DNA from: a virus
Taxonomy: Duplodnaviria; Caudoviricetes
Virus record (IMG/VR): IMGVR_UViG_3300042868_003477
Location: 1,458 to 65,457 of that record
Length of the DNA stretch: 64,000 bases
Strand: one strand, 5' to 3'
Made by a program: the position numbers and the translations under genes. Of the stretch, positions 22,588 to 61,942 are shown one piece after another; positions within the stretch are counted from its first letter, which is position 1; each line of letters starts with the position of its first letter. The notes beneath the pieces were generated by a model that was not told the DNA's origin, searched no databases, and worked only from the letters and a program-made list of their open reading frames with translations.

Positions 22588-22606
22588 AAGGTTCTCCCTT
22601 TTTTTT
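22575..22606 (+). terminator. terminator at the convergence of the two arms
   Basis: GGGAGAACTT...AGGTTCTCCC stem with T8 run; the upstream stop codon lies in the loop. Confidence 0.8.
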
Positions 22607-28495: not shown

Positions 28496-28512
28496 TAAAT
28501 ATACTAATTTTT
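28496..28512 (-). promoter_or_regulatory. candidate late-promoter element AAATTAGTATATT
   Basis: Shared with the intergenic element at 54520-54535 (AAATTTAGTATATT). Confidence 0.35.
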
Positions 28513-44104: not shown

Positions 44105-47100
44105 TTTGTAATTGTGTATTAAGGTTATTAATTTTTGGAGTATAATCTGTAGCAAATTCTTTTCTGATTCTTTCTAAATTATTGCCATGATAAGTAGTAT
44201 TGTTATAATCTGTTATCATTTCATATTTACCTTCTTCAGGATTCCATAAAGGATAATTCATAGAGACATTATAATCACCGGTTCCAATTTTATTTTTTTC
44301 AATTTGTAATTTATAATTTGGATTAGCTGGATCACTATAAGTATAAGAACCATAATAATCTACATAAGATGCTAATGGTGAATTGAAAGAACTAGTATAT
44401 AAATCATTAGATAATTCTTTAGAATCTGCAATATATGATATACCATTTTTCATAATAAGGTTATATTGTTCTGTTGATATTATACCAGGTGTGGTAAGAT
44501 CACCATCTTTATTTTTATTATAAACATAACCTTTTAACCATTCAGAATCAGGATAAATTATCATAGCAGCTTTATTTACACTACCACCAGCTATAGGTGC
44601 TACCCCAATTTTAAAGTTACCCATCTTAGTTTTAGGTTTCATCATCTCAGCTCTAATAGCATTTAATATAGAAATACCAGCATCATTTCTAAAACCTTCT
44701 TCAGCTCTTTTATCAAAAGCTGTTTTACTAATACCATCAAATGTAACACGGTTTTTATTTGTGCTACCCCAATCTATTTTTTCAATATCTCTAACTAATT
44801 GACCAAACTGAATATTTCCTTTTGTATGTACTGCTTTAGGATTAACAAATGTACCTGTGACACCTGATGTAAATAATCCAGTACCAGTCATTTCACCTAG
44901 TTGATCTAAACCTGGTAAAGGATTAGATGTTTTTGATACTTTATTTGAAGAATAAACTTTACCAGCTTCTCTAACCATTTCATCATAATCTCTTGCAACA
45001 GAATTTATTTCAACTAAATTAGTACCACCAATTGCTTTTTGAATGTCTCTCTTTTTTTCTAATAATTCTTGTACTCTTGGGTCTGACTTAGCTCTTTTTG
45101 TAGCAGCAGCATATTCTACTAAATTTTTTGAAGTACCAGTCATATACTCATCATAGATATTACTTAATTTGCTACTAACATCTTTTAATTGAATAAGCTT
45201 AATATTTCTATCAGATGATTTGCTTTTATTTGCGCCTTTTGTTAAAGAGTTTACATATTCTTCTTTAGTATTTAAATTACCATCAGTATCATATAAGTGT
45301 CTAGCTTTTTCACCAAACTTTCTTACAACTTCATTTTCTACAATTTTACCAGATTCTTTTAAAAAATCTTTATTTGCTTTTAAGTAATTAGTATAGTCTG
45401 AAAAGTTTATTGCAGATTGTTTATAATTATCATATTCTTGACCTTGAAAACCACTTAGTTGACCATTTTGACTAATCCAAGTACTCATTTTATTTCTAAT
45501 CTGTGCTAAGTCTTTAGTACCAATTTCAGATGTAATAAAACCATAACTATTAGAACCATTTAATTTTTCAGAGAATTTATCTAAACTAATATTTTTAAAT
45601 CTACTATAACCTAAAATCTCAGTAGCCTGAGCTTTAGTCATAGTACCTTGTTTCATAAATTTTTGAATCAAAGCAACTGTGTTTGATAAATAAGGAGTTG
45701 CATATTGATCAGTTCTCATTCTTGCAATTTTGGAACTAACTTCTTTTAGATTTAATCTATCTGTTGATGTACCTTTATCATTAGGTATTACAAAAGTATC
45801 ATTCAAACCTTCAATAGGAATTACTTGTCCATTTTCATCAATACGGTGAGTACCTGCTTCAAGTCTAGCTTTGTTAATCATATTTTTTTCATCACCTGCA
45901 TTTCTAATTCTTGCAGCTCTTTCTAAACCAGCATTTCTTGCAGATATTTGTTGCATACTATACTTATGTTTATCAGCAAGTACAGCATAAGGATTTGCAT
46001 CAATGTCTTGTTTAGCATCTTTGTAAGCAAATATATTGGCAGCTTCATCTAAATCTTTCTGCATTAGCATACTAGCCATACCATTATCTACTTTATATCT
46101 TAAAGATTTAATATCTCCATAAGGATTTTGAAAACCAGTTGAAGTAGTAACAGTTTTTGATTGATCACCATTGATCATTTCATTATCTTGCTCTGCTCTA
46201 CTTAGTACTTTATCATTAATACCTTTATTAGTAGTATAAGCTTTTAGTAAATCATCTATTTCTTTAGTGCCTTTACCTTCTTCTTTTTGTTTTTCTAAGT
46301 CTTTTATTTTTTTATCATAAGCTGTAGAAACATCTTTTAACTGATTATATCTTTGTACAGCTCTATCTTTTAATACAGTAAAACTATCTTCTAGATACTT
46401 CATTTCAGCTTTTTCTTTGTCACCGCCAAACTGAGCTGCATTACTATAAGCATAATCTTTTCTATTTACAAAAGACTGAGTTTTATATACAGCTTGTATA
46501 CCTGGATCAGAACCTAATTGAGATTCAAATAGTTTTTGTAAAGGTTCAATTAATTGTTCACCATTTTTAGTCTTAACAATCCATTTACCTTCTTGTGCAC
46601 CACCTTCATGACTAAAGTCTACTGTTTCAATTGATAAGCCTGCATCTTTAGCTAATTTTTGTGCTTCTTTTATAGTATTAACATAAGGAGTATATTGAAC
46701 ATTACCAAAAGACATAGCATCTGAAGAAGAAGCAGTTTTAAATTCATCCTTCATGTAATCCATTTCTCTTAAACCAACATCCCAATACTTAGCTCTTTGC
46801 TTATCATCATAAGCTCCTTTATAGGATTGAGCCATCCCATATTGATTGTTAAAGTTTTTAGTCCAAGCCATATCTTTCATTAATCCTTTATCTTCATAAA
46901 AAGGTTTAAAGATTTGTGTAGCTTGAGTAACATTTTGCTCTAATGATAAATCTAATTGAGATACTCTTTTAAGTTGAAACTCAACATTATTTAAATAATC
47001 ATCTTTCTTTTTAATATTATCATCTCTAGTAAGATCAGCATTAAAGTACTGACCATACATTTTATTTAAAGCCTTCCAGTTAGTATCATATTGCGTTTGT

Positions 47101-47197: not shown

Positions 47198-47692
47198 TTA
47201 TTTAAAATTTAAATTTGCATATATTCCTACATATAATGCTGCAGCTGCATCATATGCTTTTGCTGCCTCAATTTCTGTAATATATCTTTTAGTTAATACT
47301 CTTTTACCATTTACCATTAGTTGAGCATTCCATTTATTTCTTGCTTTATCATAAGTAACCCCTAAGTATTTAGATGAACTGTTTTTGTGAGAAGAAGTAT
47401 TTCTATTATTTTCTGCTTTAGTACAAATTCTTAAATTACTTTTTTGATTGTTTAAAGAATTACCATCTATATGATCTACAACTAAATTAGAATCATTACA
47501 TCTCATAATTACTCTATGTAAAAAAACTTCATATTTTACTCCTGATTTTAATATACTTTTCTTTTTAGATCTTTTTACATAAAATTTATTTTTAATAAAT
47601 ACAGCATTCCAATTCCATTGGCTTAACCAATAATAATCTTCATCATCTACTGTTGTATAAATGTTATTACCTAAATATAAATCCTTTGCCAT
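47198..47692 (-). CDS. free-standing HNH-AP2 homing endonuclease
   Basis: LHRVIM, VDHIDGNSLNNQKSNLR, SKYLGV...KWNAQ...EAAKAYDAAA...ANLNF. Confidence 0.9.
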   Translation of the reverse strand: MAKDLYLGNNIYTTVDDEDYYWLSQWNWNAVFIKNKFYVKRSKKKSILKSGVKYEVFLHRVIMRCNDSNLVVDHIDGNSLNNQKSNLRICTKAENNRNTSSHKNSSSKYLGVTYDKARNKWNAQLMVNGKRVLTKRYITEIEAAKAYDAAAALYVGIYANLNFK

Positions 47693-47714: not shown

Positions 47715-47756
47715 AACTATTAAAATTTTATAAGTTTATTAAACTTAAAATGTTTA
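47715..47756 (-). promoter_or_regulatory. candidate late promoter/operator (17-bp near-palindrome plus AT-rich element)
   Basis: TAAACTT-aaa-ATGTTTA at 47740-47756 plus an extra half-site at 47731; same layout as 54520-54563. Confidence 0.4.
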
Positions 47757-49937
47757 GAGTAAGTATGGAAAAATATTATCAGTATATACAAAGCCTCCAT
47801 TTGCAAAGATTGCTCCTCCTAATTTTTTACCAAATTTAATATCTAAAAGTTTTTGCTGGATTTTTGGATCATAACCAGAGATGCTATCTACATATTCTTC
47901 TGCTGTCATTTCATCTTCACCTGGTGTAACTGTTTTATCAGTTGGTGTATATGCTACCATACCACCTGTACTAGGATCAACTTGATAATTAGGATACATT
48001 TGATTCATAGCATCAGTCTTAGCTCTGTTAGTTAAAGCAGTATTATATGCTTGACGCATATTAGCTCTACCAGCTGTTTTAGCATTTTGAAACTGTTGAT
48101 TAGCAATTGTATTTTTATCATAAACTCTATTAGCCATTTGTTGGTTCAGCATCTGTTCTTGATTTCTTATACCAACTTGTTGTCCTTCAAACTGATTAGC
48201 AATGTTAACATTTTGATTGTTAATATTAGATAATGTATTAGCAGCACTTTCAGCACCTTGTCCTTGTATAGCAGATAATCTAGCATTTAAAGCTTGTGGT
48301 CCAGCAAATTGTGCAGCTGCATCAGAAGCAATGCTTGCTTGTTCTGATTGTGCAGCAAGTTCTCTTGTAGGATCTAAGAATGTAGGTCTTGGTTCTTCAA
48401 GATCAACTCTTGCTTCCCAAGGCATTTCTTTTTGAACACCCATAAGTTCTCCAAAAGCACCCATAGTATTTACAGTATCTTGTAACCACCACTTAGGATT
48501 TTGTCTAGGAGGTGCACCAGCAACTTGTTCATTAACTATTTCATCTTCACCACACATACAATCTTCATCAGTCTCAATTTCAAATACAGATACTTCACCT
48601 GTTTCAGGATCTGTACATTCACATTTCTTTTTACCTGGAATTGTTTCTTCTACTGGTTTTTCTTTTAATTCAAATGCTTCAAGTGTATCATCTCCTGATT
48701 TAGCAATATTTTCACAACCTGTAAATTTACTTATAGCTGAAGCATGTATATGACCTGCTGTTGCTACTTCTGCAGCTGTATAACCTTTAAGATCTCCGTT
48801 TTTCATTCTGTTACAAATACCTTTTTCTACAGCAGCAGCATTTGAGGGATCATAAGGATGTGTTCTGTGAGCTTTTTTTAATGCGGCTTTTTGAGCAGCT
48901 TCAGCTGCACTACCTCTTAATCCAATCTTCTTACCATCTCTTTCAACTACAATTACATCATCATCAAACTTGTCTACTTGCTTAGCTTTATGTTTAGTAG
49001 GATCATATTCTTTTTCAAGCTGTTCTTTAGATTTCTTTTTTCTTGGTGTTTCACCTGCTTTGGCATATGTTGGAATACCACCATACTTCATTTCATTTGG
49101 ATCATTATAGAAAGGCATATCATAACCACCCATTTCCATACCATACATAGCCATTGGAGAAGCACCCATTTCTTCAGGCATCTCTTCAGACATTTCTTGT
49201 GGTTGTGCAACTGGTTCACCGTTAGGCATGTTCATTGGCATTTCTTCAGAAGGACCTTCTGCTTCTTCACCTTGTGACATTTGTTCTTCAGGATTGCTTT
49301 GTTCTGGTGCTTCTTCTTTTGGTATAAGATCTTCTTCTGCTATACCCATAGCTTCCATATAAGGTTTAGCTATAACTGGAATACCTTGAGGAAATCCTTT
49401 TTTACTTTCTTGAGCTAAAGCTAAGGCTCCTAATTTAATAGTGTAATTCTTAATCATCATCTCAGCAGTTTTTCTTGCTAACTTATCTGAGTTAGGATCT
49501 TGAAGAAGTGCTCTATATTTATTTAAGTCATACTTTTTAGAAAGCTCTGCTGGTGTATAAGATTTATTATTCTTTACACCAAACATTTTAAGTATAGAAG
49601 GGTCTTTAATAATCATAGATTTAGTATCACTGAATATGAAACTATCATCTGGAAGATTAAGTGGAACTCCACCATTGGTATGTCTAGGTCCTTTTATATC
49701 ATAGAAAGAAGGCATGCTACTACCATCAATATTACCTATTACAGTTTCACCACCTTCAGCCTCCAAGTTAGCTTCTTCTCTAGGAACAGCTTTTAAAGTT
49801 TTAGAAACTTTCATATTAGGCTCACCTATATATGCATTGTAGTCAGCACCACCCATTGATGGAACATCATTTACTAAACCACCTCTAACTTGGTAACCTG
49901 TTCTAGCTTGTGGCAATTTTTTAATTCTTACTTTCAT
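47754..49937 (-). CDS. virion cargo protein with GG motifs and GxxHxxGG domain
   Basis: NLEAEGGE...GPRHTNGGV...FIFSD domain of crAss-like cargo proteins; Q/N-rich C-terminal coil; N-terminal MKVRI. Confidence 0.75.
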   Translation of the reverse strand: MKVRIKKLPQARTGYQVRGGLVNDVPSMGGADYNAYIGEPNMKVSKTLKAVPREEANLEAEGGETVIGNIDGSSMPSFYDIKGPRHTNGGVPLNLPDDSFIFSDTKSMIIKDPSILKMFGVKNNKSYTPAELSKKYDLNKYRALLQDPNSDKLARKTAEMMIKNYTIKLGALALAQESKKGFPQGIPVIAKPYMEAMGIAEEDLIPKEEAPEQSNPEEQMSQGEEAEGPSEEMPMNMPNGEPVAQPQEMSEEMPEEMGASPMAMYGMEMGGYDMPFYNDPNEMKYGGIPTYAKAGETPRKKKSKEQLEKEYDPTKHKAKQVDKFDDDVIVVERDGKKIGLRGSAAEAAQKAALKKAHRTHPYDPSNAAAVEKGICNRMKNGDLKGYTAAEVATAGHIHASAISKFTGCENIAKSGDDTLEAFELKEKPVEETIPGKKKCECTDPETGEVSVFEIETDEDCMCGEDEIVNEQVAGAPPRQNPKWWLQDTVNTMGAFGELMGVQKEMPWEARVDLEEPRPTFLDPTRELAAQSEQASIASDAAAQFAGPQALNARLSAIQGQGAESAANTLSNINNQNVNIANQFEGQQVGIRNQEQMLNQQMANRVYDKNTIANQQFQNAKTAGRANMRQAYNTALTNRAKTDAMNQMYPNYQVDPSTGGMVAYTPTDKTVTPGEDEMTAEEYVDSISGYDPKIQQKLLDIKFGKKLGGAIFANGGFVYTDNIFPYLL

Positions 49938-49946
49938 GGTTTCTTA

Positions 49947-52900
49947 TTATAAATATTCTACTTCACCTCCATTAGCAAGGAAATCTGCTAACTCTTCTTC
50001 TGTCATGTCAACTTCTTCATCTTCATAGTAGTCATTCATAGCACCACCATATTGAGCAGATCTACTTCCCCAGGTTTGACCTTGATCATTTGGTCTATAT
50101 AATCCTGTATTAGTATCATAATCACCACGGTCTCTGCTTGGATCTGAAGCATACAGATTATCAGCTGTAAGATTTTCAAATCTTTTACTATTTTGTTTAT
50201 TATTTGTAAATCTGTTTAACATTCCAGTAGCTCCTCTTACTCCAGCATTTAGTGTAGCTAATGATCCTTCAGGATCTATTTCCCACATGTTTTTAGTTTT
50301 AAAATCCATAGAGAAATTACCTGGAGTAGCTTGGTATTCTTTCTTAGCTTGATCACTAGAGAGCTGTGCTTTATCCATTTTAATTTCTTCAGGTTGTTTC
50401 TGAGTATTAACAGGAACTTTTTCATTAAAGCTTTGTTGATCATTCCAAAAGTTAGTAGGTTGTAAACCTTGTATACCTTCATTAAGAGTAAGCATATCTA
50501 CATTAGACATACCTACTAATGCAGGATTATCTGTATATGTAACTGGAGAATTTCCACCACCTGTAAATCTACTAAGATCACCACCCATTTGTTTAAAAGG
50601 ATTTTTAAAAGGATTTTGTGTAAGTGTTCCTACTGGATTTTTAGCAAGATTTTCTAATCTCTTTTTCTTTTCTGCTTTTCTTTCTTGTAAAGCATCCCAT
50701 TGCCAAGTTTCAGGATTTCTTTCTTTTTGATTGGCATTAAAACCTATTGCATCATAATATTCTTGTTTTTGTTTATCATAACCAGCTTCTATTTTTTCTA
50801 TATTAGCCATTTCTTTATCAAATGAAGCTTGATCAATTTTACCTTCTTGTAGTAATTTTGTAATCATACCTCTATTTTCTCTTAAAGCATTTCTAGGTTT
50901 GTCAAAATTTTCAACTGTATATGTATTCCTCATATCAGCTACTTCTTTATCAGTAGGATTAAGATTAACATTATTACCTCTTTGTTCTCTTTCTTTTATT
51001 GTTTTTTCTCTAGAAATTTTTTGATTATTTAAAGCTTCATCTAATCTTCTTTGAGCTTCTTCAGAAGTAGCTCTTTGAACAGGTTGATTCTTTTGAACAG
51101 ATTGTCTATTAGTATTTACTTGTCTATTATTTTGTCTATTATTTTGTCTGTTATTTCTATTAGTTTTTATTTGATCTGCCCATTCTCCCCATTTAGAATA
51201 CATACCACCTTTACCATCTCTACCAGTTAAGACTTCTTCACCTGGTATAACATCATCTTCTGGTTGATATTCTTCTGGTACACTAAATAACTTTCTAGGA
51301 TCATTATAAGAATCATAATCTTCATTTTTAGTAAAAGAATTTTCAATAGGTTCTTCAGTAGTATTATCAGGATTATCCATCATACTTGTAGCAAAAGGTC
51401 TTTGACCTAATTCATTTTGAGGAGAACTCTGTAATATTTTTTGAGACTTTTGTTCTTCAATCATTTTATTATAAGCTTCTTGCTCAGAAGTTAAAGCATT
51501 TCCAATTGGATCTTTAAAGGCACTTGGTACATTTGAACCATCAAGCTCTTGTTTAGCTGGTGCTGATACAAATGGACTTAATGCTTCTAATGAAGAAGGT
51601 GACTTTTGAGAAGGTTTAAGATAATCTTTAACAGAATTAGTTTCTAGTTTTTCTTCATCTCTAATTGGATGATCTAATGGGAAACCTGCATAAGGATCTA
51701 AGTTAGCATCAGATGCACTTAAGTTTTGTTTTTCTCCTCTAGCTAATTCTCTAGCAGTTCTTCTTTCACCTCTTCTGATAGCACCAGTTGCACCAGCACC
51801 TAACCCTTCAGTATTAGAAAAAGTTTTTCCAGCACCAGTTGTTTGAGCACCAGGTGTAGTACCTTGACCAGGTAATGTAATCAAGTTTTGTTTTCTTGGA
51901 TCCATTTGCTGGTTACCATAGTTAATGGTATACTTCTTAGGTCTACCAAACATACCTGACTTAGTAACATCAATTGATTGTACTTGTGTATTAGGTCCAA
52001 AACCCATACCAGGTATATTAGCTCCACTTAGTTTATCATAAGGACCTCTTCTCATTTGAGCCCATGAACCTCTATTGGTTGCTATGTTAGCGGGAAACAA
52101 ACTACCAAAAGCATTGAATCCATTATAACCTACATTAGCATAAGGGTTATATTGTTGATTTTGCTTTTGCATATACTCTTTTTCCCATTTTTCTTTTTCT
52201 TTAGCAAGTTTAGCTTCATAATCTTCCGTTTGATTACCAAATTTAACACCAGATTTTTCACCCATGGACCATACATCTGCACTAGGTAAATCATCTCTTA
52301 ATGACATACTGTTTGCATCTCCTACTCTTTTTTTATAATCATCAAAAAGTGATTTAGAATAAAAACCTTTATTTGTATTTTCATCAGTTTCACCTTTATC
52401 TGCATAAGTAGTTAATCCACCATATTGAAAATATGGATCAGAAGTATCTTTAGAATATACATCATCTATGTCAGCTTGATCTATGTCATTACCACCATAA
52501 ATAAACTTGTATAAATCTGGATTTTCAGAATCTACAAAACCACCAAATGGATAATTAGAGTCTCCACCATATTGTTTTTTATTTTTATCTATATATTTTT
52601 TTACAGATGAATTATTAAAACTTGGTAAGTCTGGTAAGTAATTATAAAGTTCTGATAAATTTTCAGCAGCATTTTGTCTATTTTCAGAAGCAGATCTATT
52701 AAATACATTTTTTTCTACAGGAGCATTAGGAAATTCTAACCAATCACCAAGACCACCAGTTTCTTTATCTACAGGAGCAACTGTATTTTTTTCTAGATTA
52801 TTAAAAGGTATTGTATTCTTTTTAGTTATTTTACCTACAGGTTGCGTTTGAGCAGTATGATTTTTAGGATCTCCTTTAAATTTTATATAAGAACCATCAT

Positions 52901-54503
52901 TAGCTTTTCTATAATAGTAACCTTTATTATTTGGTAAAGTGACATATTCAGAACTTTTATTTTCTCCAGCTTCTAATCTAGCAAGGTTACCTTCATTACC
53001 TACATTAAAATATTGTTCTTTTTTAGGATCAAAATACCTCCATTTATCATTTGTTCTTTGATATGTATATGAAGAACCTGGTAAACCTTGTAAATAAAGA
53101 TCATTTTGTTTTTTCTTTTCTCTTGTAGCTTCACTATTATTTACTACAGCATCTGTAGCTTCATCATTTACTTGTGTTGCTTTTCTTTCACCATTAGATC
53201 CAGTGTTTTCTTGAACATTACTAGCTGTACTTCCAGGTGTAGTATTTGAAGCTGCAGCATCACTAGATTTATTAGTAGCTGTATTACCCGGAGTATTAGC
53301 TGCTACTTCTTTAGTAGCTTCATTATTAACTACTTTAGCTACTTCTTCTGTAATAATTCTACCTTTTGTTTTACCTCCTTTTTTAGTTGTTTGACCATAA
53401 CCATAAAAACCAGCACCCATACCAGGAAAGCCCATACCAGGCATAACACTTGGCATACCAAATTCCATAGAGTATTCTTTAGGTCTACCAAATAAACCAG
53501 ATCTTCTTACATCCATTTTAGTAACAGGAGGCATACCATTTCCAAAGCCAAAACCTCTAGGCATTTTAGGTCTTCCAAATAACCCTCTTCTCATAGGTAT
53601 TTGAGCACCCATTTGAGCTTGATTAATTTGATTTTGATCTTGATCAAATATGTTACCTGTAGATTGAGAAAACAATGCTAAGTGATGCATTGGATTTTCA
53701 AAATCTTGTCCTTGGTAAATATTTGGATCTCCACCTTGTTGAGCCATAGGATACTGTTGCATCTGTTGTTGCTGTTGCATCATTTGATCAAACTGTTGTT
53801 CAGCTTGTTCTTTAGCTTTAGCTTGTGCAGAAGTATTTTGTAATGTACCAATAAAAGCTTGTAACTTATTTTTTCTAAAATCAGCTCCTATAGGATCACT
53901 GTCATTAGTTTTTGCTTGCTCAGTACCACCTGCTTGTTTTTTAATTAAAGATACCTTTTGTTTAACAAAAGCATTTTTAGCTTTTTTATAAGAACCTCCA
54001 TGTCTCATAACTAAATCAGAAGCAAAGGCATCTTCATCACTATAGTCTTCTTCTTCATCTTCTGCAACTACATCATTAGCAATATCATTATTTACATCAT
54101 CACCATAAAAGTCTTCTTCTATTTCTTGTACTGGCTCTGATTCTTCACCTGTATATTGATCTTCAGTTTCATCTTCTTCAACTTCATCTTCTGCTTCTGC
54201 ATCTCTTTGACTTTCTAATGAAGAATATATTTGCTCATAAAATTGATCAATAGACATAGGATCTAAACCTGAACTGTTAGCTATTTTCATAACAGTTTCT
54301 TCTTTAGGTCTTCCATTTGAAATGTCACTAATTATCATTTGAGATAATTGATCTTCATTAGACTCTTCTGTTTCTTGAGGATAACCCATTACATTAGGAT
54401 CAGGCATACCACCTTCTTGAGCTTTTTGTATAAAGCTGCTTAGTTTATTTATAACTTTCCCTTGACCGTCTGGTGCTTTATAAATTCTGACTTTCTTTTT
54501 CAT
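49947..54503 (-). CDS. low-complexity virion cargo protein (candidate polyprotein) with many xxxGG motifs
   Basis: 1518 aa, Cys-free, largely disordered composition; AQEGG, MRHGG, KQAGG, AQQGG, KQYGG, FQYGG, KQMGG, AQYGG. Confidence 0.75.
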   Translation of the reverse strand: MKKKVRIYKAPDGQGKVINKLSSFIQKAQEGGMPDPNVMGYPQETEESNEDQLSQMIISDISNGRPKEETVMKIANSSGLDPMSIDQFYEQIYSSLESQRDAEAEDEVEEDETEDQYTGEESEPVQEIEEDFYGDDVNNDIANDVVAEDEEEDYSDEDAFASDLVMRHGGSYKKAKNAFVKQKVSLIKKQAGGTEQAKTNDSDPIGADFRKNKLQAFIGTLQNTSAQAKAKEQAEQQFDQMMQQQQQMQQYPMAQQGGDPNIYQGQDFENPMHHLALFSQSTGNIFDQDQNQINQAQMGAQIPMRRGLFGRPKMPRGFGFGNGMPPVTKMDVRRSGLFGRPKEYSMEFGMPSVMPGMGFPGMGAGFYGYGQTTKKGGKTKGRIITEEVAKVVNNEATKEVAANTPGNTATNKSSDAAASNTTPGSTASNVQENTGSNGERKATQVNDEATDAVVNNSEATREKKKQNDLYLQGLPGSSYTYQRTNDKWRYFDPKKEQYFNVGNEGNLARLEAGENKSSEYVTLPNNKGYYYRKANDGSYIKFKGDPKNHTAQTQPVGKITKKNTIPFNNLEKNTVAPVDKETGGLGDWLEFPNAPVEKNVFNRSASENRQNAAENLSELYNYLPDLPSFNNSSVKKYIDKNKKQYGGDSNYPFGGFVDSENPDLYKFIYGGNDIDQADIDDVYSKDTSDPYFQYGGLTTYADKGETDENTNKGFYSKSLFDDYKKRVGDANSMSLRDDLPSADVWSMGEKSGVKFGNQTEDYEAKLAKEKEKWEKEYMQKQNQQYNPYANVGYNGFNAFGSLFPANIATNRGSWAQMRRGPYDKLSGANIPGMGFGPNTQVQSIDVTKSGMFGRPKKYTINYGNQQMDPRKQNLITLPGQGTTPGAQTTGAGKTFSNTEGLGAGATGAIRRGERRTARELARGEKQNLSASDANLDPYAGFPLDHPIRDEEKLETNSVKDYLKPSQKSPSSLEALSPFVSAPAKQELDGSNVPSAFKDPIGNALTSEQEAYNKMIEEQKSQKILQSSPQNELGQRPFATSMMDNPDNTTEEPIENSFTKNEDYDSYNDPRKLFSVPEEYQPEDDVIPGEEVLTGRDGKGGMYSKWGEWADQIKTNRNNRQNNRQNNRQVNTNRQSVQKNQPVQRATSEEAQRRLDEALNNQKISREKTIKEREQRGNNVNLNPTDKEVADMRNTYTVENFDKPRNALRENRGMITKLLQEGKIDQASFDKEMANIEKIEAGYDKQKQEYYDAIGFNANQKERNPETWQWDALQERKAEKKKRLENLAKNPVGTLTQNPFKNPFKQMGGDLSRFTGGGNSPVTYTDNPALVGMSNVDMLTLNEGIQGLQPTNFWNDQQSFNEKVPVNTQKQPEEIKMDKAQLSSDQAKKEYQATPGNFSMDFKTKNMWEIDPEGSLATLNAGVRGATGMLNRFTNNKQNSKRFENLTADNLYASDPSRDRGDYDTNTGLYRPNDQGQTWGSRSAQYGGAMNDYYEDEEVDMTEEELADFLANGGEVEYL
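51119..51156 (-). repeat. 12-nt tandem repeat encoding (NNRQ)x3
   Basis: ttgtctattatt units visible on the + strand. Confidence 0.7.
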
Positions 54504-54519
54504 ATAAATAGTTATATTA

Positions 54520-54563
54520 TAATATACTAAATTTTAAATTAATACCTAAACTTGATAAGTTTA
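54520..54563 (-). promoter_or_regulatory. candidate late promoter/operator
   Basis: Perfect inverted repeat TAAACTT-gat-AAGTTTA (54547-54563) followed on the minus strand by AAAATTTAGTATATT. Confidence 0.4.
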
Positions 54564-56363
54564 TATTAATTCAATTACATAGCCTTGTTTTCTTAATTGT
54601 TCAATTTCCTTATCTGTTAACTCTGTTTCCATTACATTAGGTTGACCACCTAATTTTTTATTAATAGGTATATTTCTTAATAAATTTACAGCATCAATTG
54701 TTTTAGATGCTTTTAAAGGATTGTCAACATACTGTTTTTCTTTATCCATTAACCCTTGCATAGATTTACTTAGCCAGAATGGATTTTCAATTCTATTTAA
54801 TACATTGCTAACGGTCCGAGAACTTGAAGGTATCTTTGTATAAGGTATAAGGTCCATACCTGTAGTTACTGTTTTATCTAAAAAGTTTGCAGCATTTTCT
54901 CTTGTTGGATTATTTTTTAAAGTATTAAATTTATCATACAAGGCAGGAGTACTTAAAACAGCTGCAGCAGCAGCTTTTGATTTTAAAATATTATTAAGAG
55001 TTAAGTTTTTAGCAGCTGCCTGAAGTAAAGGATTACTTTGTTGTGTAGCATTTACTAAAGCAGCATTAGGTGCATCTAAAGCTTGATTAAAAGCTTTTAA
55101 AAAAGATTTAGAATCTTTTGTTACTTGTTTTACTTTAGGCATTAAATACTGAGCACCTTTAATAAACATTTTACTTCTACCCATACCAGTCATGTCTTCA
55201 GCTAATCCAGGAGTACCTGCTACGGGAGCAGGTAAAAATTCATTATATGGATTACCTCTATCTGTAATACCTATATCATAAGCAAGTGTCCTACCTATTT
55301 TTTCTAAAAAGTTTTTCTTATCCCAATCTTGTTTAGCTTTTCTATACTCAGCTACAGTTTCTCTAGGTGCATCTTTATTCATCTTAGGAGCTATTTGATT
55401 ATCAGGCTTATTATCAAAAGCTTTATTCATTTCTTTTGTAGTTAAATCTTCTACAGCAGATTCCCATTCACCATCATCATAGTCTCCATAGTTATCTCTT
55501 TGACTAGCTAACTTCTTTAAGTTTTCTTGTACTTTATCTTTATATTTAGTATAATTATCTTTACCTTCTACTCCAAAGTTTTTATCAAAGTTTTCTTGTC
55601 TTTTTTTATCTTCTGGAGATAATTTTTTTACAGTAGTATTTTGATTAGTATTTTGATAATTTAAATTTGGAGCTTCATCATTAGCTCTTCTCCAATCAGA
55701 ATTATCTTTTTTTACTTTTGCTGATTCAACTATTTTCTTTTGAGTTGTTCTCATAATTTTTTTCCAAGGATCATCACTACTGGCTCCTCCTTTTTGATAT
55801 TCTAAAGTAGGTATAGAAATATCTTCAACTATGTATCCACCATCTTTATATGCTTGGATTTCTTCATCAGTTAATTCTGTTTCAATATAGTCTTCATCTT
55901 GTTCACCACCATCTTGATAATACTTAGCTTTTGGATCAAATACTTTTCTTCTTTTATCCTTTGGTTTTTTAAATAGATAATTCTCAGTAAATAATCTATT
56001 AGTGGCATCTAAACTTCTAGAGTATGCTTTAGATGCTAAACCTTTATTACTAGGTTTTGGCATAGGAACTAATCCTTTCATATAACCTCCTCTTTTCATT
56101 TGTGGATATTCATCTACATAGTCTGCTTCTGGAAAGTTATATTCTTGACCTGGTTGCATCATCTGTGGTTGACCTACGTTAGGTTGAGCCCATACAGGAT
56201 AAGGAACACCTTGCATAGTAATATCATTACCTGGTATTCTTGTATTTTGTCCTGGATGTGCCCATTGACCCATAGGATCATAAATGATGTCTCTAGACTT
56301 AGAAGGAGCTTTTGCTTTGTTAAGCCCTCTTGTAGCTTGGGATAAAACTTTTTTATTACTCAT
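54561..56363 (-). CDS. virion cargo protein with GG motifs and duplicated ELTDxEI module
   Basis: ITMQGVPYPV...PGQEYNFP..VDEYP module; MKRGG, YQDGG, YQKGG, KKLGG; two ETELTDxEI..G(G)Y.(V/I)E copies. Confidence 0.75.
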   Translation of the reverse strand: MSNKKVLSQATRGLNKAKAPSKSRDIIYDPMGQWAHPGQNTRIPGNDITMQGVPYPVWAQPNVGQPQMMQPGQEYNFPEADYVDEYPQMKRGGYMKGLVPMPKPSNKGLASKAYSRSLDATNRLFTENYLFKKPKDKRRKVFDPKAKYYQDGGEQDEDYIETELTDEEIQAYKDGGYIVEDISIPTLEYQKGGASSDDPWKKIMRTTQKKIVESAKVKKDNSDWRRANDEAPNLNYQNTNQNTTVKKLSPEDKKRQENFDKNFGVEGKDNYTKYKDKVQENLKKLASQRDNYGDYDDGEWESAVEDLTTKEMNKAFDNKPDNQIAPKMNKDAPRETVAEYRKAKQDWDKKNFLEKIGRTLAYDIGITDRGNPYNEFLPAPVAGTPGLAEDMTGMGRSKMFIKGAQYLMPKVKQVTKDSKSFLKAFNQALDAPNAALVNATQQSNPLLQAAAKNLTLNNILKSKAAAAAVLSTPALYDKFNTLKNNPTRENAANFLDKTVTTGMDLIPYTKIPSSSRTVSNVLNRIENPFWLSKSMQGLMDKEKQYVDNPLKASKTIDAVNLLRNIPINKKLGGQPNVMETELTDKEIEQLRKQGYVIELI

Positions 56364-59300
56364 TATCTAAGAGATATTTGATTTTTAGAATTAATTAATT
56401 TTAGTATCATGTTTATATTACCTGATATATCTTTTCTTAAATATAAGAAATTTAAATAATTTCTGAATTTTTTTCTTTGCAATTGAACTTTTACAGCATC
56501 TAAGTTATTAGGATTAAGAATTTTAACATAACCATTAGGTTCTGTATTCCATAAATATTCTTGAGTATAATTACCTAGTAATTCAGTAGTACCTGGTACA
56601 AGCGGTCCTGTAGGAGGATAAGTAGAACCAATAGGAAATTCTCCACGGTCTTTAGTAATATCCCAGAACTGATTGAATCTATATTTATTCTCTTCTTTAG
56701 AAAATAAAATATCAAAACCAACAGATGCAGGTAAGTTAGGTTCAACAATAATTGAGTTGTTTAATTTAGGGTACTGTAGACTTAAAGTAATATTATTTTT
56801 TGGAAAGATGTTTAAGTTTAAATATCCAGAAACTTGTTCCATATTATAAACCACAGCTTTATCAAAATTAAAATCTAATACTTGAAATTGATCTACACAG
56901 TTATTAGGACTTCTTTTATAACATTCTAAAATGTATTCTACAGATTTTAATGTTGTAACACTTTGTCCGGTTGCAACTGGTACTTCAACTTCAAAAGGAT
57001 AATTTTTACCATAGTAATTACAATAAGCATCACATGCATAGTTATGTTTCCAGCCTGTATTATTTTTTGTAGTTAAAAAATATCCTTTAGTAGGTATAAC
57101 AAGATCAGGATGCCAGTCATGGAAACTAATCCAGAATTCATTCTTGGGGTCATAACTTATTGTCCAAGAAGCATCTTTAAATACAGCATTCTCTTCTAGC
57201 TTATATCTAGCACTCATGTTAATAGAACCATCTGGATTCTTAATAACAAAGAAGTCTCCTTGACCTTTTCTTAAAGTTACACCATTTACAATAGTTTTTC
57301 CCACTGTAACTAATGGTATGTATTCTAATTTACCTATATACTCTTCTCTTACTTCATAATCTTTTTTAGCAAAATATAATATAGAGTTTGTATTATCATA
57401 TACAGTTTGAATACCTATACCTGCTACTGGATTATCTTGCCAAGGATAGTCTGGAAAGTGTACTGTAAATTTATAAGATAAGAATAAATTAAACCACCAT
57501 TTTAAACCTATTTGTGAAATTTCTTTTAAACCTTCACCATAACTAAATATTTTACCTTGATTCTCAGACACATAGAATAATCCTGCAGGAGTATTAGATA
57601 TAGATAATCTATTTTGAGATGAACCATACTCATAAGGTTTATCAGCATTACTTACTGATTGACCTGGTTGAGAAAATAATCCACCATCTCCAATAGTAAT
57701 CTTAGTAGCTAAATCTGTCTGAAGTGTATCAACACCTTGGAACATCTGTGGACTATCGTTCTTAAATGTTATAAATAAACCTGACTTGTTAATTGATTTA
57801 ACACCAGATATTTGAGATTTAAACTCTCTATAGTTATTAGCCAAATATATAAACCAAGAATCTTTAAATGACTCATCTTGTTGTTGTAAAGAATAATATA
57901 TTCTATCTGGATAATAAGTATAACATAACTTAGCAACTTCAGGATCATAATATCTAGATTGTAAATTACCTGATGAAAAATATTGATTATATAACTTACT
58001 GATACTTAATGAGTAATCATATCTATACCAGTTACCTCTTGTAATATTTTCAGGATCTATATCAAACATTCTTGTTAAAGAAGTATAGTTATATGGGTTA
58101 TAGTTCTTTTCCCATTCATAGTCTCCAGCAATTCTAAAATCTACAAGTACATCAGACTCTACAAAGAAGTCTCTTACTGAAGAACATGCTAAATAGAAAT
58201 TAGCTTCTTTTGCTCTAAATACTCCTGGATAATTTACTTGATTAGGTTCTGTTTCATAATCATATTGATCATAATCTAGTCTATAAAATCTAGAAGGTAA
58301 CACACCAGCACCTGGTGTAGGATTTGAAAAGTTAGAAGGAGCTAACTCTGATATATCAAATGCTTTTGAATTAACAAAGAATCTTGGTCTTGGTATCATT
58401 TGATGAGTTTGATAGTTAAATTCAAAACCATCTGGTTGACCAAACAACCAATCATAAAAATAGAACATTGAATTTTTTTCAGTATATCTATTTACAAAAG
58501 TGTCACCGCCAAATAATATAGGAGTGGACTTAATTTTTTTAATCTTTATGTAAGTATTATCACAAGGAACATTTGATTGAAAAGATAAAGTATCATAATC
58601 AAATTTTTGTTCACAAGGTGTTATTGTAATTTGTTTAATACCTTTTAATTGACCATATTGATTTCTTATTCTAACTTTAAGACCTGCATAGTGACTAGCA
58701 ATAGGCATATCAAAATTAACATCTACTTGATCAAAAGTTGGAGCATCTACTCCTGAAGTAGTAATTATATTTAAAGAACTAGAATTTACTAAACCATTTT
58801 GAACTATATGACCAAGTGTTGTTAATGATTGATCTACATAACTTACACCAGTTGGTTCAGTAATATAGTTTGGACCTATCACTCCATTTTGATAAAAGCT
58901 TTGGGGAACATTTGGTCCACCAGAAGTTCTTACTACTACAGTATCTGATCTTTTAAGATTATTAATACTATAATTAAAAAAACCTGTATTTTGAATGTTT
59001 TGATAAGAAGGTACTTGTTGTATATTATCTCTTATGTAAAAACTATCATTAATCTTAAATCTATACAAACCATTAGTTGCATTATTCTTTCTCATATCTC
59101 CATAGAAGCCATGTGCTATCATTTGTAATGCAAATTGATCAAATGGTATTAAAGCTCTAATTAAATCAATTGTTACATTGGCCCCTTCTGAAAAATAATA
59201 TAGTAATTGATTAGCTGCTTGTGCAAAACCAATAGGTCCTAAGTATGCAAAATCAGGAACTGTTTGTGTATAAGAATCACCCGATACACTTGCACCACCT

Positions 59301-61942
59301 ACTGAAATTGGATACGTCATAAAACCTGCTAGTGTATTATTTATAGTAGTTAAATTAGGTGTAAGACCAGTAAAAGCTGAAGCTAATGCATCAACAAAAG
59401 AAGCACCTGAATTAAAGTAAGAATTTAATGCTCCATTATAACCTACTGCAAAAGGTATTGGTGGTATAATTGGTGCAGGTAAAACAAAAGGGAATGTTGT
59501 ATATGCTTGTTGTGCAAGTCCAGCACCTGTTAATTGAGCAAGATAACCAGGGTCTGTTGGAGAAGGACCTCCAGCAGCGTAACCAGGAGAAGTATAATTA
59601 GGAGAATTAATTGAGATCTTACCACTCATAGATATTATGGCTTCTATTAGACCACCTAAGAAAGCTGGTATTAAAGCTAAGTCAGCAATTAACTTAAACT
59701 GAGGATGTTTGTTAGGTTCTATAAATTGTTGATTACTAGTACCTCTTAAGTATCCATATAGTTTTAATTCAGTAGATGATAAGAATGGTGTATTAAACAT
59801 AGTATCCGGAGAATGGAAACTTACCATATCTAATGGAACTCTTTGATCTAATACTTTATCATTGTATTTAACACCATCATCTGTATCTGGTATTCTAATA
59901 TAAGGATCCATAAATGGTCTATTATGATCATTTCCGGTACCTGTATTATAAAAACCATTAATAGTATTAAAAGGATAGTTAGCATACAAGCCTGTAGTAC
60001 GAGCTGTATTATTTTGTACTTGTCCTTGTACTTCATATGTTCTAAAGTTATTTAACATACCTTTAGCAATAATAGACTTGTTCCCTTCTCGGGAACCTCT
60101 TAATATTTCATAACCTACTATACCTGGAATATCATTACCATCATTATCTTTTGGATATGAAATATTTTCAAAGTATACTCCCATTAATCTAATCTTTAAT
60201 TCATTAGGTTTATAAGCAGAAGCAGTTTTAAAATGATTAGTAACTGACGGAACAACTGTATTTCCTGGATCTGTCATATTATCTGGAAACTTATGATGTC
60301 TAATATTTAAACCACATAAATCATATTCATATGAAGATTTAGGTAATCCTGTTATAGGATCAATAGGAACTCCTGTCCAACAATAATTACTAGAATTCCA
60401 TATATCAGGTCTATTATCTGGATATTCTTCAGTAGATTGCCAATAGGCCATATCACCAACCCCAACAATTTTACCTCCATCATTAAGTATAGTATTTACT
60501 AAAGGATTTGGTACAAGATCAACTGAAGCTGTATTAGTTACTTCAAATATTTTATCATCTATTGTTAATGCATTAGTAGTTGTATCTTGAGAATATTCCC
60601 AAGTAGTACTATTAATTTGTTTAGGAGCTCTTCCTGGAATATGATATGATGCAGACTTATCCCCTGTATCATAAACCCAACGGATAAAGAAGGTATATAC
60701 TTCATCTCTTAAATAATTTCCTTTACCGCCTCCTTTTACATAATAATCTGCAGGATATTCTACTGAAGCCCACTTAGCTTTAATAAGATTAGCTAATGGT
60801 TGATAATTAAAATCAAACTTAGATGTAGGACCTACTCTTAACAAGTAATTGTTTACTTCAGTCATTTGATCTGATTTTTCAATAACAGGAGTTTGTATTG
60901 GTAAAAATCTTAAAGGAACAGATACAGTATCTTCTTTAATTTGATCAAGAGCAATTCTATTTGTTTTTGTAGAATAAATTCCTATTTGTTTTGCTACAGT
61001 ACCTTGATTAATATTTTGTACTACTACTAATACAAACTCTTCAAAGTTTGAATCATCAGCTTCTATATCAATTGTTAATGATCCTTGTAAATCATTTGGA
61101 TACCAAATAGGTTGTGTATTGCTTGGAGAAAAATAGTCAGTTACTTTTTGTCCTTTAATTGTATAAGCAATTGTAGCAAAGTAAGTACCATTTCTTAAAG
61201 TACCTCCTTGATTACCTAAAGACATTTTAAGACATGGTGTTTTTACTAGTCTTGCTAATCTTGTATGATCACAATCTAAAATATTTAAAAGAGATGTAAA
61301 AACACAGTCTGTACTATTTGAAACTTTTTCTTTCCATTGAACACCTGGCCATAGTAGTTGTTGTGTACCATTAGAATAGAAGTTCATTGTAGTTGAACCT
61401 CCTCCTAACCAAGTATAATCTGAAGTAGGCCAAGTTTGCGGATCCCCTACATTTAAATATCTATCTGGATTTAAACCATCAGCCCAATATACTTGCCATG
61501 TGCAATCTTCTTTTTCTCTTGATGCTCCTGATATAAGATATCTTTTGTCAAAACCTAAACAGGCATCTTGTACAATAGGTCTATATGTACATTGATTTTC
61601 TTCAAATAAACCTATCTCAGACATTCTAGGTTGTCCAGAAATATTATGACCTGCTGTAAATATTAACCATTTATCTGAAAACATTTGAATAGCACCCATT
61701 ATATGTCTAGTAACAACAGCATTAACACCAGTAGTTGGCATAGTACTTCCTGTAGTAAAACATAAAAAGTTAGCAGCTTCATTAGATAATGTACCTAAGT
61801 CTCCTTCAAATGTATTATTTACTGCATTACGAGCATGTGACCACATACCTTCTTGTACATAAGAAGGATCTGAATCTTTATTAAGGCCTTTTATAAAACT
61901 GTTGTTAACAGTTTGACCCGTGTTTTGAATATCCTTTGCCAT
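56363..61942 (-). CDS. tail muzzle / tail-stabilisation protein (P22 gp10-like)
   Basis: N-terminal F.KGLNKDSDP...W.HARN...G.LSNE; GGDTFVNRY; WTISY...WISFHDWHPD; beta-rich 1859 aa directly after the ring proteins. Confidence 0.8.
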   Translation of the reverse strand: MAKDIQNTGQTVNNSFIKGLNKDSDPSYVQEGMWSHARNAVNNTFEGDLGTLSNEAANFLCFTTGSTMPTTGVNAVVTRHIMGAIQMFSDKWLIFTAGHNISGQPRMSEIGLFEENQCTYRPIVQDACLGFDKRYLISGASREKEDCTWQVYWADGLNPDRYLNVGDPQTWPTSDYTWLGGGSTTMNFYSNGTQQLLWPGVQWKEKVSNSTDCVFTSLLNILDCDHTRLARLVKTPCLKMSLGNQGGTLRNGTYFATIAYTIKGQKVTDYFSPSNTQPIWYPNDLQGSLTIDIEADDSNFEEFVLVVVQNINQGTVAKQIGIYSTKTNRIALDQIKEDTVSVPLRFLPIQTPVIEKSDQMTEVNNYLLRVGPTSKFDFNYQPLANLIKAKWASVEYPADYYVKGGGKGNYLRDEVYTFFIRWVYDTGDKSASYHIPGRAPKQINSTTWEYSQDTTTNALTIDDKIFEVTNTASVDLVPNPLVNTILNDGGKIVGVGDMAYWQSTEEYPDNRPDIWNSSNYCWTGVPIDPITGLPKSSYEYDLCGLNIRHHKFPDNMTDPGNTVVPSVTNHFKTASAYKPNELKIRLMGVYFENISYPKDNDGNDIPGIVGYEILRGSREGNKSIIAKGMLNNFRTYEVQGQVQNNTARTTGLYANYPFNTINGFYNTGTGNDHNRPFMDPYIRIPDTDDGVKYNDKVLDQRVPLDMVSFHSPDTMFNTPFLSSTELKLYGYLRGTSNQQFIEPNKHPQFKLIADLALIPAFLGGLIEAIISMSGKISINSPNYTSPGYAAGGPSPTDPGYLAQLTGAGLAQQAYTTFPFVLPAPIIPPIPFAVGYNGALNSYFNSGASFVDALASAFTGLTPNLTTINNTLAGFMTYPISVGGASVSGDSYTQTVPDFAYLGPIGFAQAANQLLYYFSEGANVTIDLIRALIPFDQFALQMIAHGFYGDMRKNNATNGLYRFKINDSFYIRDNIQQVPSYQNIQNTGFFNYSINNLKRSDTVVVRTSGGPNVPQSFYQNGVIGPNYITEPTGVSYVDQSLTTLGHIVQNGLVNSSSLNIITTSGVDAPTFDQVDVNFDMPIASHYAGLKVRIRNQYGQLKGIKQITITPCEQKFDYDTLSFQSNVPCDNTYIKIKKIKSTPILFGGDTFVNRYTEKNSMFYFYDWLFGQPDGFEFNYQTHQMIPRPRFFVNSKAFDISELAPSNFSNPTPGAGVLPSRFYRLDYDQYDYETEPNQVNYPGVFRAKEANFYLACSSVRDFFVESDVLVDFRIAGDYEWEKNYNPYNYTSLTRMFDIDPENITRGNWYRYDYSLSISKLYNQYFSSGNLQSRYYDPEVAKLCYTYYPDRIYYSLQQQDESFKDSWFIYLANNYREFKSQISGVKSINKSGLFITFKNDSPQMFQGVDTLQTDLATKITIGDGGLFSQPGQSVSNADKPYEYGSSQNRLSISNTPAGLFYVSENQGKIFSYGEGLKEISQIGLKWWFNLFLSYKFTVHFPDYPWQDNPVAGIGIQTVYDNTNSILYFAKKDYEVREEYIGKLEYIPLVTVGKTIVNGVTLRKGQGDFFVIKNPDGSINMSARYKLEENAVFKDASWTISYDPKNEFWISFHDWHPDLVIPTKGYFLTTKNNTGWKHNYACDAYCNYYGKNYPFEVEVPVATGQSVTTLKSVEYILECYKRSPNNCVDQFQVLDFNFDKAVVYNMEQVSGYLNLNIFPKNNITLSLQYPKLNNSIIVEPNLPASVGFDILFSKEENKYRFNQFWDITKDRGEFPIGSTYPPTGPLVPGTTELLGNYTQEYLWNTEPNGYVKILNPNNLDAVKVQLQRKKFRNYLNFLYLRKDISGNINMILKLINSKNQISLR

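Follow-up and report, generated by a model that had tools for sequence, protein, structure and literature searches.

Three consecutive genes of a crAss-like phage carry, at both junctions between them, a conserved pair of end motifs: an acidic module that closes the upstream protein and a short basic strand that opens the downstream one. The genes lie in the viral record IMGVR_UViG_3300042868_003477 (Duplodnaviria; Caudoviricetes), of which we have analyzed positions 1,458 to 65,457, a stretch of 64,000 nucleotides (nt) that we call the window and that is a crAss-like phage fragment. They follow the gene of the muzzle protein and are named here cargo genes 1, 2, and 3. We propose that the motif pair represents docking elements that rejoin a cargo protein of the C1 type (gp45 of phage crAss001) that is split in this virus. 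Judged from the sequences, the chances of the direct docking that is predicted here seem to us about even.

The three cargo genes are located on the minus strand. Cargo gene 1 (54561..56363) encodes a protein of 600 amino acids (aa) (P0001), gene 2 (49947..54503) encodes a mostly low-complexity protein of 1518 aa (P0002), and gene 3 (47754..49937), which starts 9 nt past the stop of gene 2, encodes a protein of 727 aa (P0003). No Pfam-A or PHROG family matches P0001, P0002, or P0003, and a tblastn search of P0002 against phage records gave no match. To describe their ends, 56 related viral loci were collected via the muzzle protein, the genes downstream were listed, and four profiles were built from the relatives only, two for gene ends (C1, gene 1; C2, gene 2) and two for gene starts (N2, gene 2; N3, gene 3). 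The scan covered 7238 six-frame segments of the window plus the 56 related loci. The window was matched at exactly five sites (40-45 bits each, independent E-values from 2e-12 to 8e-11), all on the minus strand. P0001 lacks the basic K-V-R-I start and contains two acidic modules, one internal (residues 154-182; 55818..55904; profile C1, 43.8 bits, independent E-value 5e-12) and one C-terminal (residues 572-600; 54564..54650; profile C1, 40.0 bits). Gene 2 begins with the K-V-R-I motif (residues 1-22; 54438..54503; profile N2, 41.5 bits) and ends in an acidic module (residues 1489-1518; 49950..50039; profile C2, 45.4 bits), and gene 3 begins with K-V-R-I again (residues 1-22; 49872..49937; profile N3, 45.4 bits). 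Beyond these five sites, no segment of the window scored above 5.1 bits, and neither the N-terminus of gene 1 nor the proteins of 1034, 1963, 3249, and 1958 aa gave any motif-profile match. Five relatives with a completeness of 96-100% each have one strong match of profile C2, the end of gene 2 (E-values from 1e-15 to 1e-21), and 2 further weak matches were found in the same frame. The profile scan rules out chance or composition as the origin of the motifs. The end and start sequences quoted in the initial annotation are all present at these sites, and the matches agree with its reading that the module occurs twice in the 600-aa protein and once at the end of the 1518-aa protein, and that the genes following each share a basic start. 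In the literature that we searched, these end motifs are not described.

In the acidic module, a short strand leads into an amphipathic helix, and after a glycine turn comes a final strand of alternating acidic and hydrophobic residues; the start motif alternates basic and hydrophobic residues (K-V-R-I-K). The codons of the conserved glycines and of K-V-R-I differ synonymously between relatives, and therefore selection acts on the protein and not on an RNA or ribosome-binding signal. The same synonymous variation rules out two nucleotide-level accounts, namely a Shine-Dalgarno sequence in the glycine-glycine codons and an A-rich initiation region.

Conservation of both motifs extends over about 250 related viral loci. 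The start motif forms the first residues of the protein in every locus matched, the C2 module stops 0-2 residues short of the stop codon, and gene 3 begins a few bases further on: of 109 distinct junctions between genes 2 and 3, 108 have a gap of 1-11 nt. These junctions were obtained by pooling all loci, which contain 228 sites of the gene-3 domain (the folded domain described below), 214 of them split from gene 2, 6 fused, and 8 undecidable. Both motifs are present in 105 junctions, both are degraded in 2 (L085 and L107), and the module is found without the start motif in 2 (L149 and L233); the start motif is never found alone. A regular expression parsed both motifs in 101 of the 109 junctions and the remaining 8 were classed by eye; this procedure was used for the counts because the profiles, made from the clade of the window, score the most distant lineage poorly. 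In L085 and L107 the final strand is missing and V-R-I is lost, and in L149 and L233 the start motif is missing and the final strand carries no acidic residues. A sampling that is independent of the motifs, in which viral contigs were scanned for a conserved nonapeptide of the gene-3 domain (113 loci), yielded 76 distinct split junctions; the upstream end was a variant of the module in all 76, and the downstream protein had a basic start in 75.

The junction of genes 1 and 2 is less uniform. Among 71 distinct junctions, scored with the profiles at a cut of 8 bits that under-scores distant lineages, 50 have both motifs, 12 have neither, 9 have only the start motif, and none has only the module. 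The expectation raised in the initial annotation, that a gene ending in the module is followed by one starting with K-V-R-I, thus holds for genes 2 and 3 and only in part for genes 1 and 2. Both genes are separated by a spacer of 57 nt (54504..54560, minus strand) in which the stop is followed at once by a 6-bp hairpin and then by an AT-rich box, and the spacers of 52 relatives (54-62 nt) show a strong consensus. Possibly the spacer acts as a phage promoter or as a combined terminator and promoter. The exact 14-nt AT-rich box has one copy in the window; a copy with one mismatch is located at 28498-28511 (minus strand), in the short gap before the gene of the 1958-aa protein, and the number of matches at 2 mismatches is not above chance.

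These distances bear on an explanation in which the motifs are relics of gene fission, that is, they mark the cut of an ancestral gene and serve translational coupling or co-translational assembly, with no lasting link in the virion. The gap of 1-11 nt between genes 2 and 3 suits coupled translation, and fused forms do exist in several lineages (see below). However, the synonymous variation at conserved codons excludes a signal at the nucleotide level, and genes 1 and 2, which usually show the same pair, are separated by the conserved spacer with its hairpin and AT-rich box and have no coupled overlap. In addition, 109 junctions have in common about 25 conserved residues at one side and about 10 at the other, which requires a function at the protein level. 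We consider this explanation unlikely.

The internal copies of the module raise another possibility. In relatives, gene 1 contains 1-3 modules, mostly internal, and 31 distinct internal copies were found; in about half of them a conserved stretch containing proline comes next. By reading only, the sequence following internal modules resembles the start of an extra gene found in loci L035 and L021. Pairs of glycines, mostly after an aromatic residue or a glutamine, flank the modules and recur across P0001-P0003 and in crAss001 gp45, with a modest enrichment over shuffled sequence (z 1.6-2.4). The module and the sequence behind it might then constitute a site of the head-maturation protease, the internal copies giving the same mature ends as the gene boundaries. 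The proline-containing stretch and the flanking glycine pairs are in agreement with such a maturation signal; nevertheless, where the module closes a protein there is nothing left to cleave off, and yet this copy is the best conserved. Moreover, no protease was identified in the window, the glycine pairs are only mildly enriched, and the basic N-terminal motif would be left without explanation, and thus we regard this alternative as highly improbable.

Lineages in which the cargo genes have been rearranged keep the motif pair. In loci L035 and L021 an extra gene opens with the basic motif and its upstream neighbor ends in a variant of the module, and the extra gene of L035 has in turn a C1 module at its end, before gene 2. 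In a permuted lineage, a protein that opens with two tandem basic motifs comes directly after a gene with the C2 module at its end; the domain that usually follows the start motif has moved to the far C-terminus. The pair is also kept in a distant lineage, MARVRI, where the gene upstream ends in a canonical module; this lineage was located with a degenerate DNA pattern, the loci around P0137 being fused or partial and lacking the N-terminus sought. The Leptolyngbya phage Lbo-JY46, a distant cyanophage (25% identity in the muzzle protein), has one junction with both motifs and a neighboring junction with neither, and Cellulophaga phage phi17:2 has neither motif.

Fused genes behave as would be expected of docking-type elements, which should be absent when the polypeptides are continuous. 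A profile of the gene-3 domain found 1763 representative protein clusters at E-values up to 0.001, and the best 150 of these were examined. Eight are fusions of genes 2 and 3, with the gene-2 start motif at the beginning and the gene-3 domain at residues 617-1004, and neither the module nor K-V-R-I is present at the joint. In other fused forms (P0121, P0135, P0139, P0155, and L215), no K-V-R-I precedes the gene-3 domain. Finally, the ends of the putative chain are bare, gene 1 having no start motif and gene 3 having a different C-terminus without the canonical module. The loss on fusion, the survival of the pair through insertion and permutation, and the bare chain ends are three results that fit docking at chain breaks, as far as gene sequences can tell.

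Two further observations concern the ends of these genes. In distant gene-3 homologues with a basic start (P0111, P0132, P0137, P0150, and P0152), the C-terminus consists of the first half of the module (M-T/S-x-E-E-L-E-A-x-L), which would permit further chaining or self-association. A second conserved type of junction appears in other lineages, in L141 (4137-5330) and L147 (1-700), where an end G-G-(E)-W-L-D-N plus two residues is followed by M-T-K-(D/E)-E-I-L. Cargo genes of this kind may commonly have ends that match.

What the cargo proteins would build can be derived from crAss001. According to the available text of its structure paper (PMC10172136), the muzzle gene is followed there by genes for the packaged and ejected cargo proteins C1 (gp45) and C2 (gp46), and then for giant proteins associated with the polymerase. 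A single gp45 chain contacts the ring proteins of the tail with a helix and, inside the capsid, the portal wing with a domain, and the order of the cargo is described there as probably set by packing and by interactions between cargo proteins. In the window, the muzzle protein (1859 aa; 56363..61942, minus strand) was recognized by the Pfam family crAss_MUZ (PF25731, E-value 3.8e-30) and by PHROG families of virion structural proteins. Its nearest relatives in named phages, at about 25% identity, belong to Cellulophaga, Flavobacterium, and Leptolyngbya phages and to a gut crAss-like phage. The muzzle gene adjoins the cargo genes directly upstream, and cargo genes 1-3 come after it on the same strand, which is the position of C1.

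Gene 3 contains a folded domain (residues 45-200; 49338..49805, minus strand) that AlphaFold2 models with a predicted local distance difference test score (pLDDT) of 70-90. A Foldseek search of this domain against 350,542 chains gave as top match chain M of 7qog, i.e., gp45, with a weak E-value of 0.39. The same chain ranked first of 164 in VIA-align, also weakly (Z 4.7, root-mean-square deviation 4.7, 89 residues aligned, 20% identity). Both scores fall short of convincing evidence for the fold of the gp45 domain that binds the portal wing (residues 425-552). This is a weak but position-consistent sign that gene 3 may be the capsid-side half of C1 and genes 1 and 2 its tail-side half. A split C1 would need a joint just before the portal-bound domain, and this is the site of the C2 module and of the K-V-R-I start. 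In gp45 itself, one module-like stretch occurs after the portal-bound domain.

Taking these data together, we propose that cargo genes 1-3 specify ejection proteins carried in the virion, and that these together would equal the single crAss001 C1, here split. At each break, the acidic module ending the upstream protein would meet the basic strand beginning the downstream one, the final acidic strand and the basic start pairing with each other and packing against the helix. The pieces would be rejoined non-covalently and head to tail, from gene 1 to gene 2 to gene 3. Within the capsid, the portal wing would carry the folded domain of gene 3, genes 1 and 2 would reach into the tail, and the pieces would leave the virion in gene order. 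The sequences establish the motifs, their strictly terminal position, their conserved adjacency, their joint loss in fusions, and selection on both at the protein level; we infer that the motifs touch each other, where the proteins lie in the virion, and that the joints order the ejection.

Several observations weigh against this proposal. In 9 of the 71 junctions between genes 1 and 2, an intact start motif follows a gene without a terminal module; these nine exceptions represent about six kinds of end, one of which is a truncated module that keeps only the first half, without the final strand. The module need not be terminal, and modules outnumber start motifs, and hence docking, if any, is not strictly end-to-end, or else the modules have further partners. 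The fusions are weaker evidence than they appear, because one fusing deletion removes both neighboring motifs at once, and the adjacency of the motifs is for the most part inherited with the gene order. Coupled changes of the two strands at the junction of genes 2 and 3, those of L149, L233, L085, and L107 included, speak for the proposal and are suggestive. Only 3 junctions have lysine as the second polar residue of the final acidic strand, and the same 3 alone have Q for R/K in the basic strand. However, a tree-aware covariation test on the tree of the gene-3 domain (103 rows) had 5 independent contrasts, in which the partner followed the change in 2-3, opposed it in 0, and remained unchanged in 2-3 (sign test, p 0.25-0.5), so that the covariation is not significant, with too few independent events. 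The homology between gene 3 and gp45 is likewise weakly indicated, by the structural scores: in BLASTP, gp45 had no significant similarity to P0003 or P0002, and the profile of the gene-3 domain found nothing among PDB sequences at E-values up to 1. In addition, gp45 opens with a loosely similar basic stretch, though its upstream gene is the muzzle gene and has no module.

Structural models of the motifs also count on this side. The initial annotation had labeled the module as beta-alpha-beta, and this label found no support for the isolated module: AlphaFold2 of the internal copy with its flanks (28-row alignment) gave a lone short helix with a mean pLDDT of 58.9 and no compact fold. Residues 1-40 of gene 3, which include the start motif, are disordered in the monomer model (pLDDT <50). 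The isolated module is thus modeled as a lone helix of low confidence and the start motif as disordered. A complex prediction for residues 1-200 of gene 3 (20-row alignment) and the last 45 of gene 2 (41-row alignment) scored 0.05 and 0.06 against a mark of 0.32; run without controls, it speaks neither for nor against binding.

Some of these observations would also be explained if both motifs were independent terminal anchors, each binding a component of the virion (portal, ring proteins, muzzle, DNA, or scaffold), and their adjacency were due to the conserved gene order. There is a precedent in gp45, whose short segments, as described in the available text of PMC10172136, attach separately to the portal wing, to the ring proteins R1/R2, and probably to the muzzle. 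The nine start motifs without an upstream terminal module, the modules without a start motif in L149 and L233, and the frequent internal copies agree with this explanation. The fact that neither motif folds alone in AlphaFold2 is also expected if folding takes place upon binding a larger partner. However, a general cargo signal should be found on all the cargo, and gene 1 has no start motif and the four large downstream proteins have neither motif. The fusions of genes 2 and 3 lose both motifs, yet the fused protein must still be packaged, and in the permuted lineage the start motif stays by the module and not with its usual domain. Coupled strand changes would be unexpected as well, although they are compatible with anchors if both strands adjoin on one third partner. 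We consider independent anchors possible, and less probable than direct docking of both motifs. The docking idea of the initial annotation is partly supported: it is favored by the adjacency at the junction of genes 2 and 3, the fusions, the rearrangements, and the bare ends, and it is weakened by the internal copies and the nine exceptions to end-to-end pairing.

With somewhat less confidence than an even chance would warrant, we extend the docking proposal to many crAss-like phages (the 1763 clusters). Their cargo would be a train of separate polypeptides clipped together by a joint of two strands plus a helix, made of an acidic end and a basic start, and terminal cysteines may link the proteins further down. 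The order of the genes would write the order of threading, and genes could be inserted, split, fused, or permuted while the joint is kept. It is an open question by what means podovirus-like phages accommodate many large proteins and then release them in sequence through a narrow channel, and the conserved motif pair at the junctions of cargo genes provides a concrete and testable hypothesis on this ordering. The pair would also explain why the length and number of these genes vary so widely in spite of their constant ends, and it provides a practical annotation rule for the low-complexity genes after the crAss-like muzzle gene, which are otherwise unannotatable.

The cargo genes are part of a larger group. 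The source record is a 65-kb sequence with an estimated completeness of 55%, and the window has about 30% G+C; its minus strand contains, from 63.9 kb to 22.6 kb, a single long block of virion genes. Between gene 3 and the gene of the 1034-aa protein sits an HNH homing-endonuclease gene (47198-47692, minus strand), and an HNH gene is also found in the cargo block of a relative (L050, 19627-20124). In L141 (3418-4137), a GIY-YIG/NUMOD3 gene follows the muzzle gene, and the last residues of its product are those of the muzzle protein. Further downstream, all on the minus strand, the 1963-aa protein (38264-44155) contains a PD-(D/E)XK nuclease domain and the 1958-aa protein (22605-28481) a LysM domain. 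The giant proteins encoded at 38264-44155, 28511-38260, and 22605-28481 have a cysteine within a few residues of the C- or N-terminal end. These cysteines are the terminal-Cys chain named in the initial annotation, and they are found likewise in phi17:2, Lbo-JY46, and crAss001 gp47 (loci L059, L060, and L058). In P0002, a G-L/M-F-G-R-P-K motif followed by a tyrosine-containing stretch occurs in three copies (residues ~305-345 and 830-845), and the permuted lineage has this motif in its gene-2 homologue as well (L266, 4529-5995). Cargo gene 1 of some relatives opens with a SET methyltransferase domain (Pfam PF00856; L029, 15403-16002, E-value 3.5e-8; L042, 15499-16098, E-value 1.6e-6; L027 and L053, by eye), i.e., an enzyme domain carried on an ejected protein.

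The docking domains of polyketide synthases (PKS) and nonribosomal peptide synthetases (NRPS), which the initial annotation took as its model, are short complementary C- and N-terminal elements on successive subunits; the order of the genes is that of the subunits, and the domains are dispensable on fusion. The cargo genes would follow the same logic, with complementary end elements, a gene order that matches the subunit order, and elements that are dispensable once the proteins are fused. The elements are also placed at the extreme C-terminal end of one protein and the extreme N-terminal end of the next, with the exception of the internal copies and of the 9 of 71 junctions between genes 1 and 2. 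In contrast to PKS and NRPS subunits, the partners in this case are ejected structural proteins and not enzymes, the module is also internal, and the binding is putative. The analogy of logic is thus retained, and homology is not, given that no Pfam-A or PHROG family matches the three proteins.

Short conserved terminal peptides are also used to direct proteins into shells. The cargo-loading peptides of encapsulins and the capsid targeting sequence of T4 are carried by each cargo and bind the shell or scaffold. The motifs described in this work resemble them in being short, conserved, and terminal on proteins inside an HK97-fold shell. Nevertheless, they are missing at the first and last ends of the chain and from the large polymerase-like proteins, and they are lost on fusion. 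Rather than finding the same terminal peptide on every packaged cargo, the profiles matched cargo genes 1-3 only.

Ejection in units has been proposed for the virion RNA polymerase gp50 of N4-like phages, described in the available text of PMC13434306 as a beads-on-a-string ejection protein whose loosely connected units would pass stepwise through the narrow tail channel. In both cases large proteins packaged in the virion would be organized in loosely connected units; the string of gp50, as presented in that text, is one covalent chain, whereas the proposed string of the cargo genes consists of separate polypeptides joined by terminal motifs.

The closest known counterpart is C1 of crAss001 (gp45; PDB 7qog, chain M; Bayfield et al., 2023). 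Like the cargo genes, the gp45 gene is located right after the muzzle gene and encodes long glycine-rich, low-complexity regions, a basic N-terminus, and a compact domain; the last of these came first, with weak scores, in the structure comparisons of the gene-3 domain. They differ in that gp45 is one polypeptide and the cargo of the window is encoded by three genes with terminal motifs at each break, and also in that the sequence similarity is not significant and the structural match is weak (Z 4.7). As far as the available description of its structure goes, the gp45 chain spans from the tail barrel to the capsid, and this is the topology that the proposed chain of three docked proteins would rebuild.

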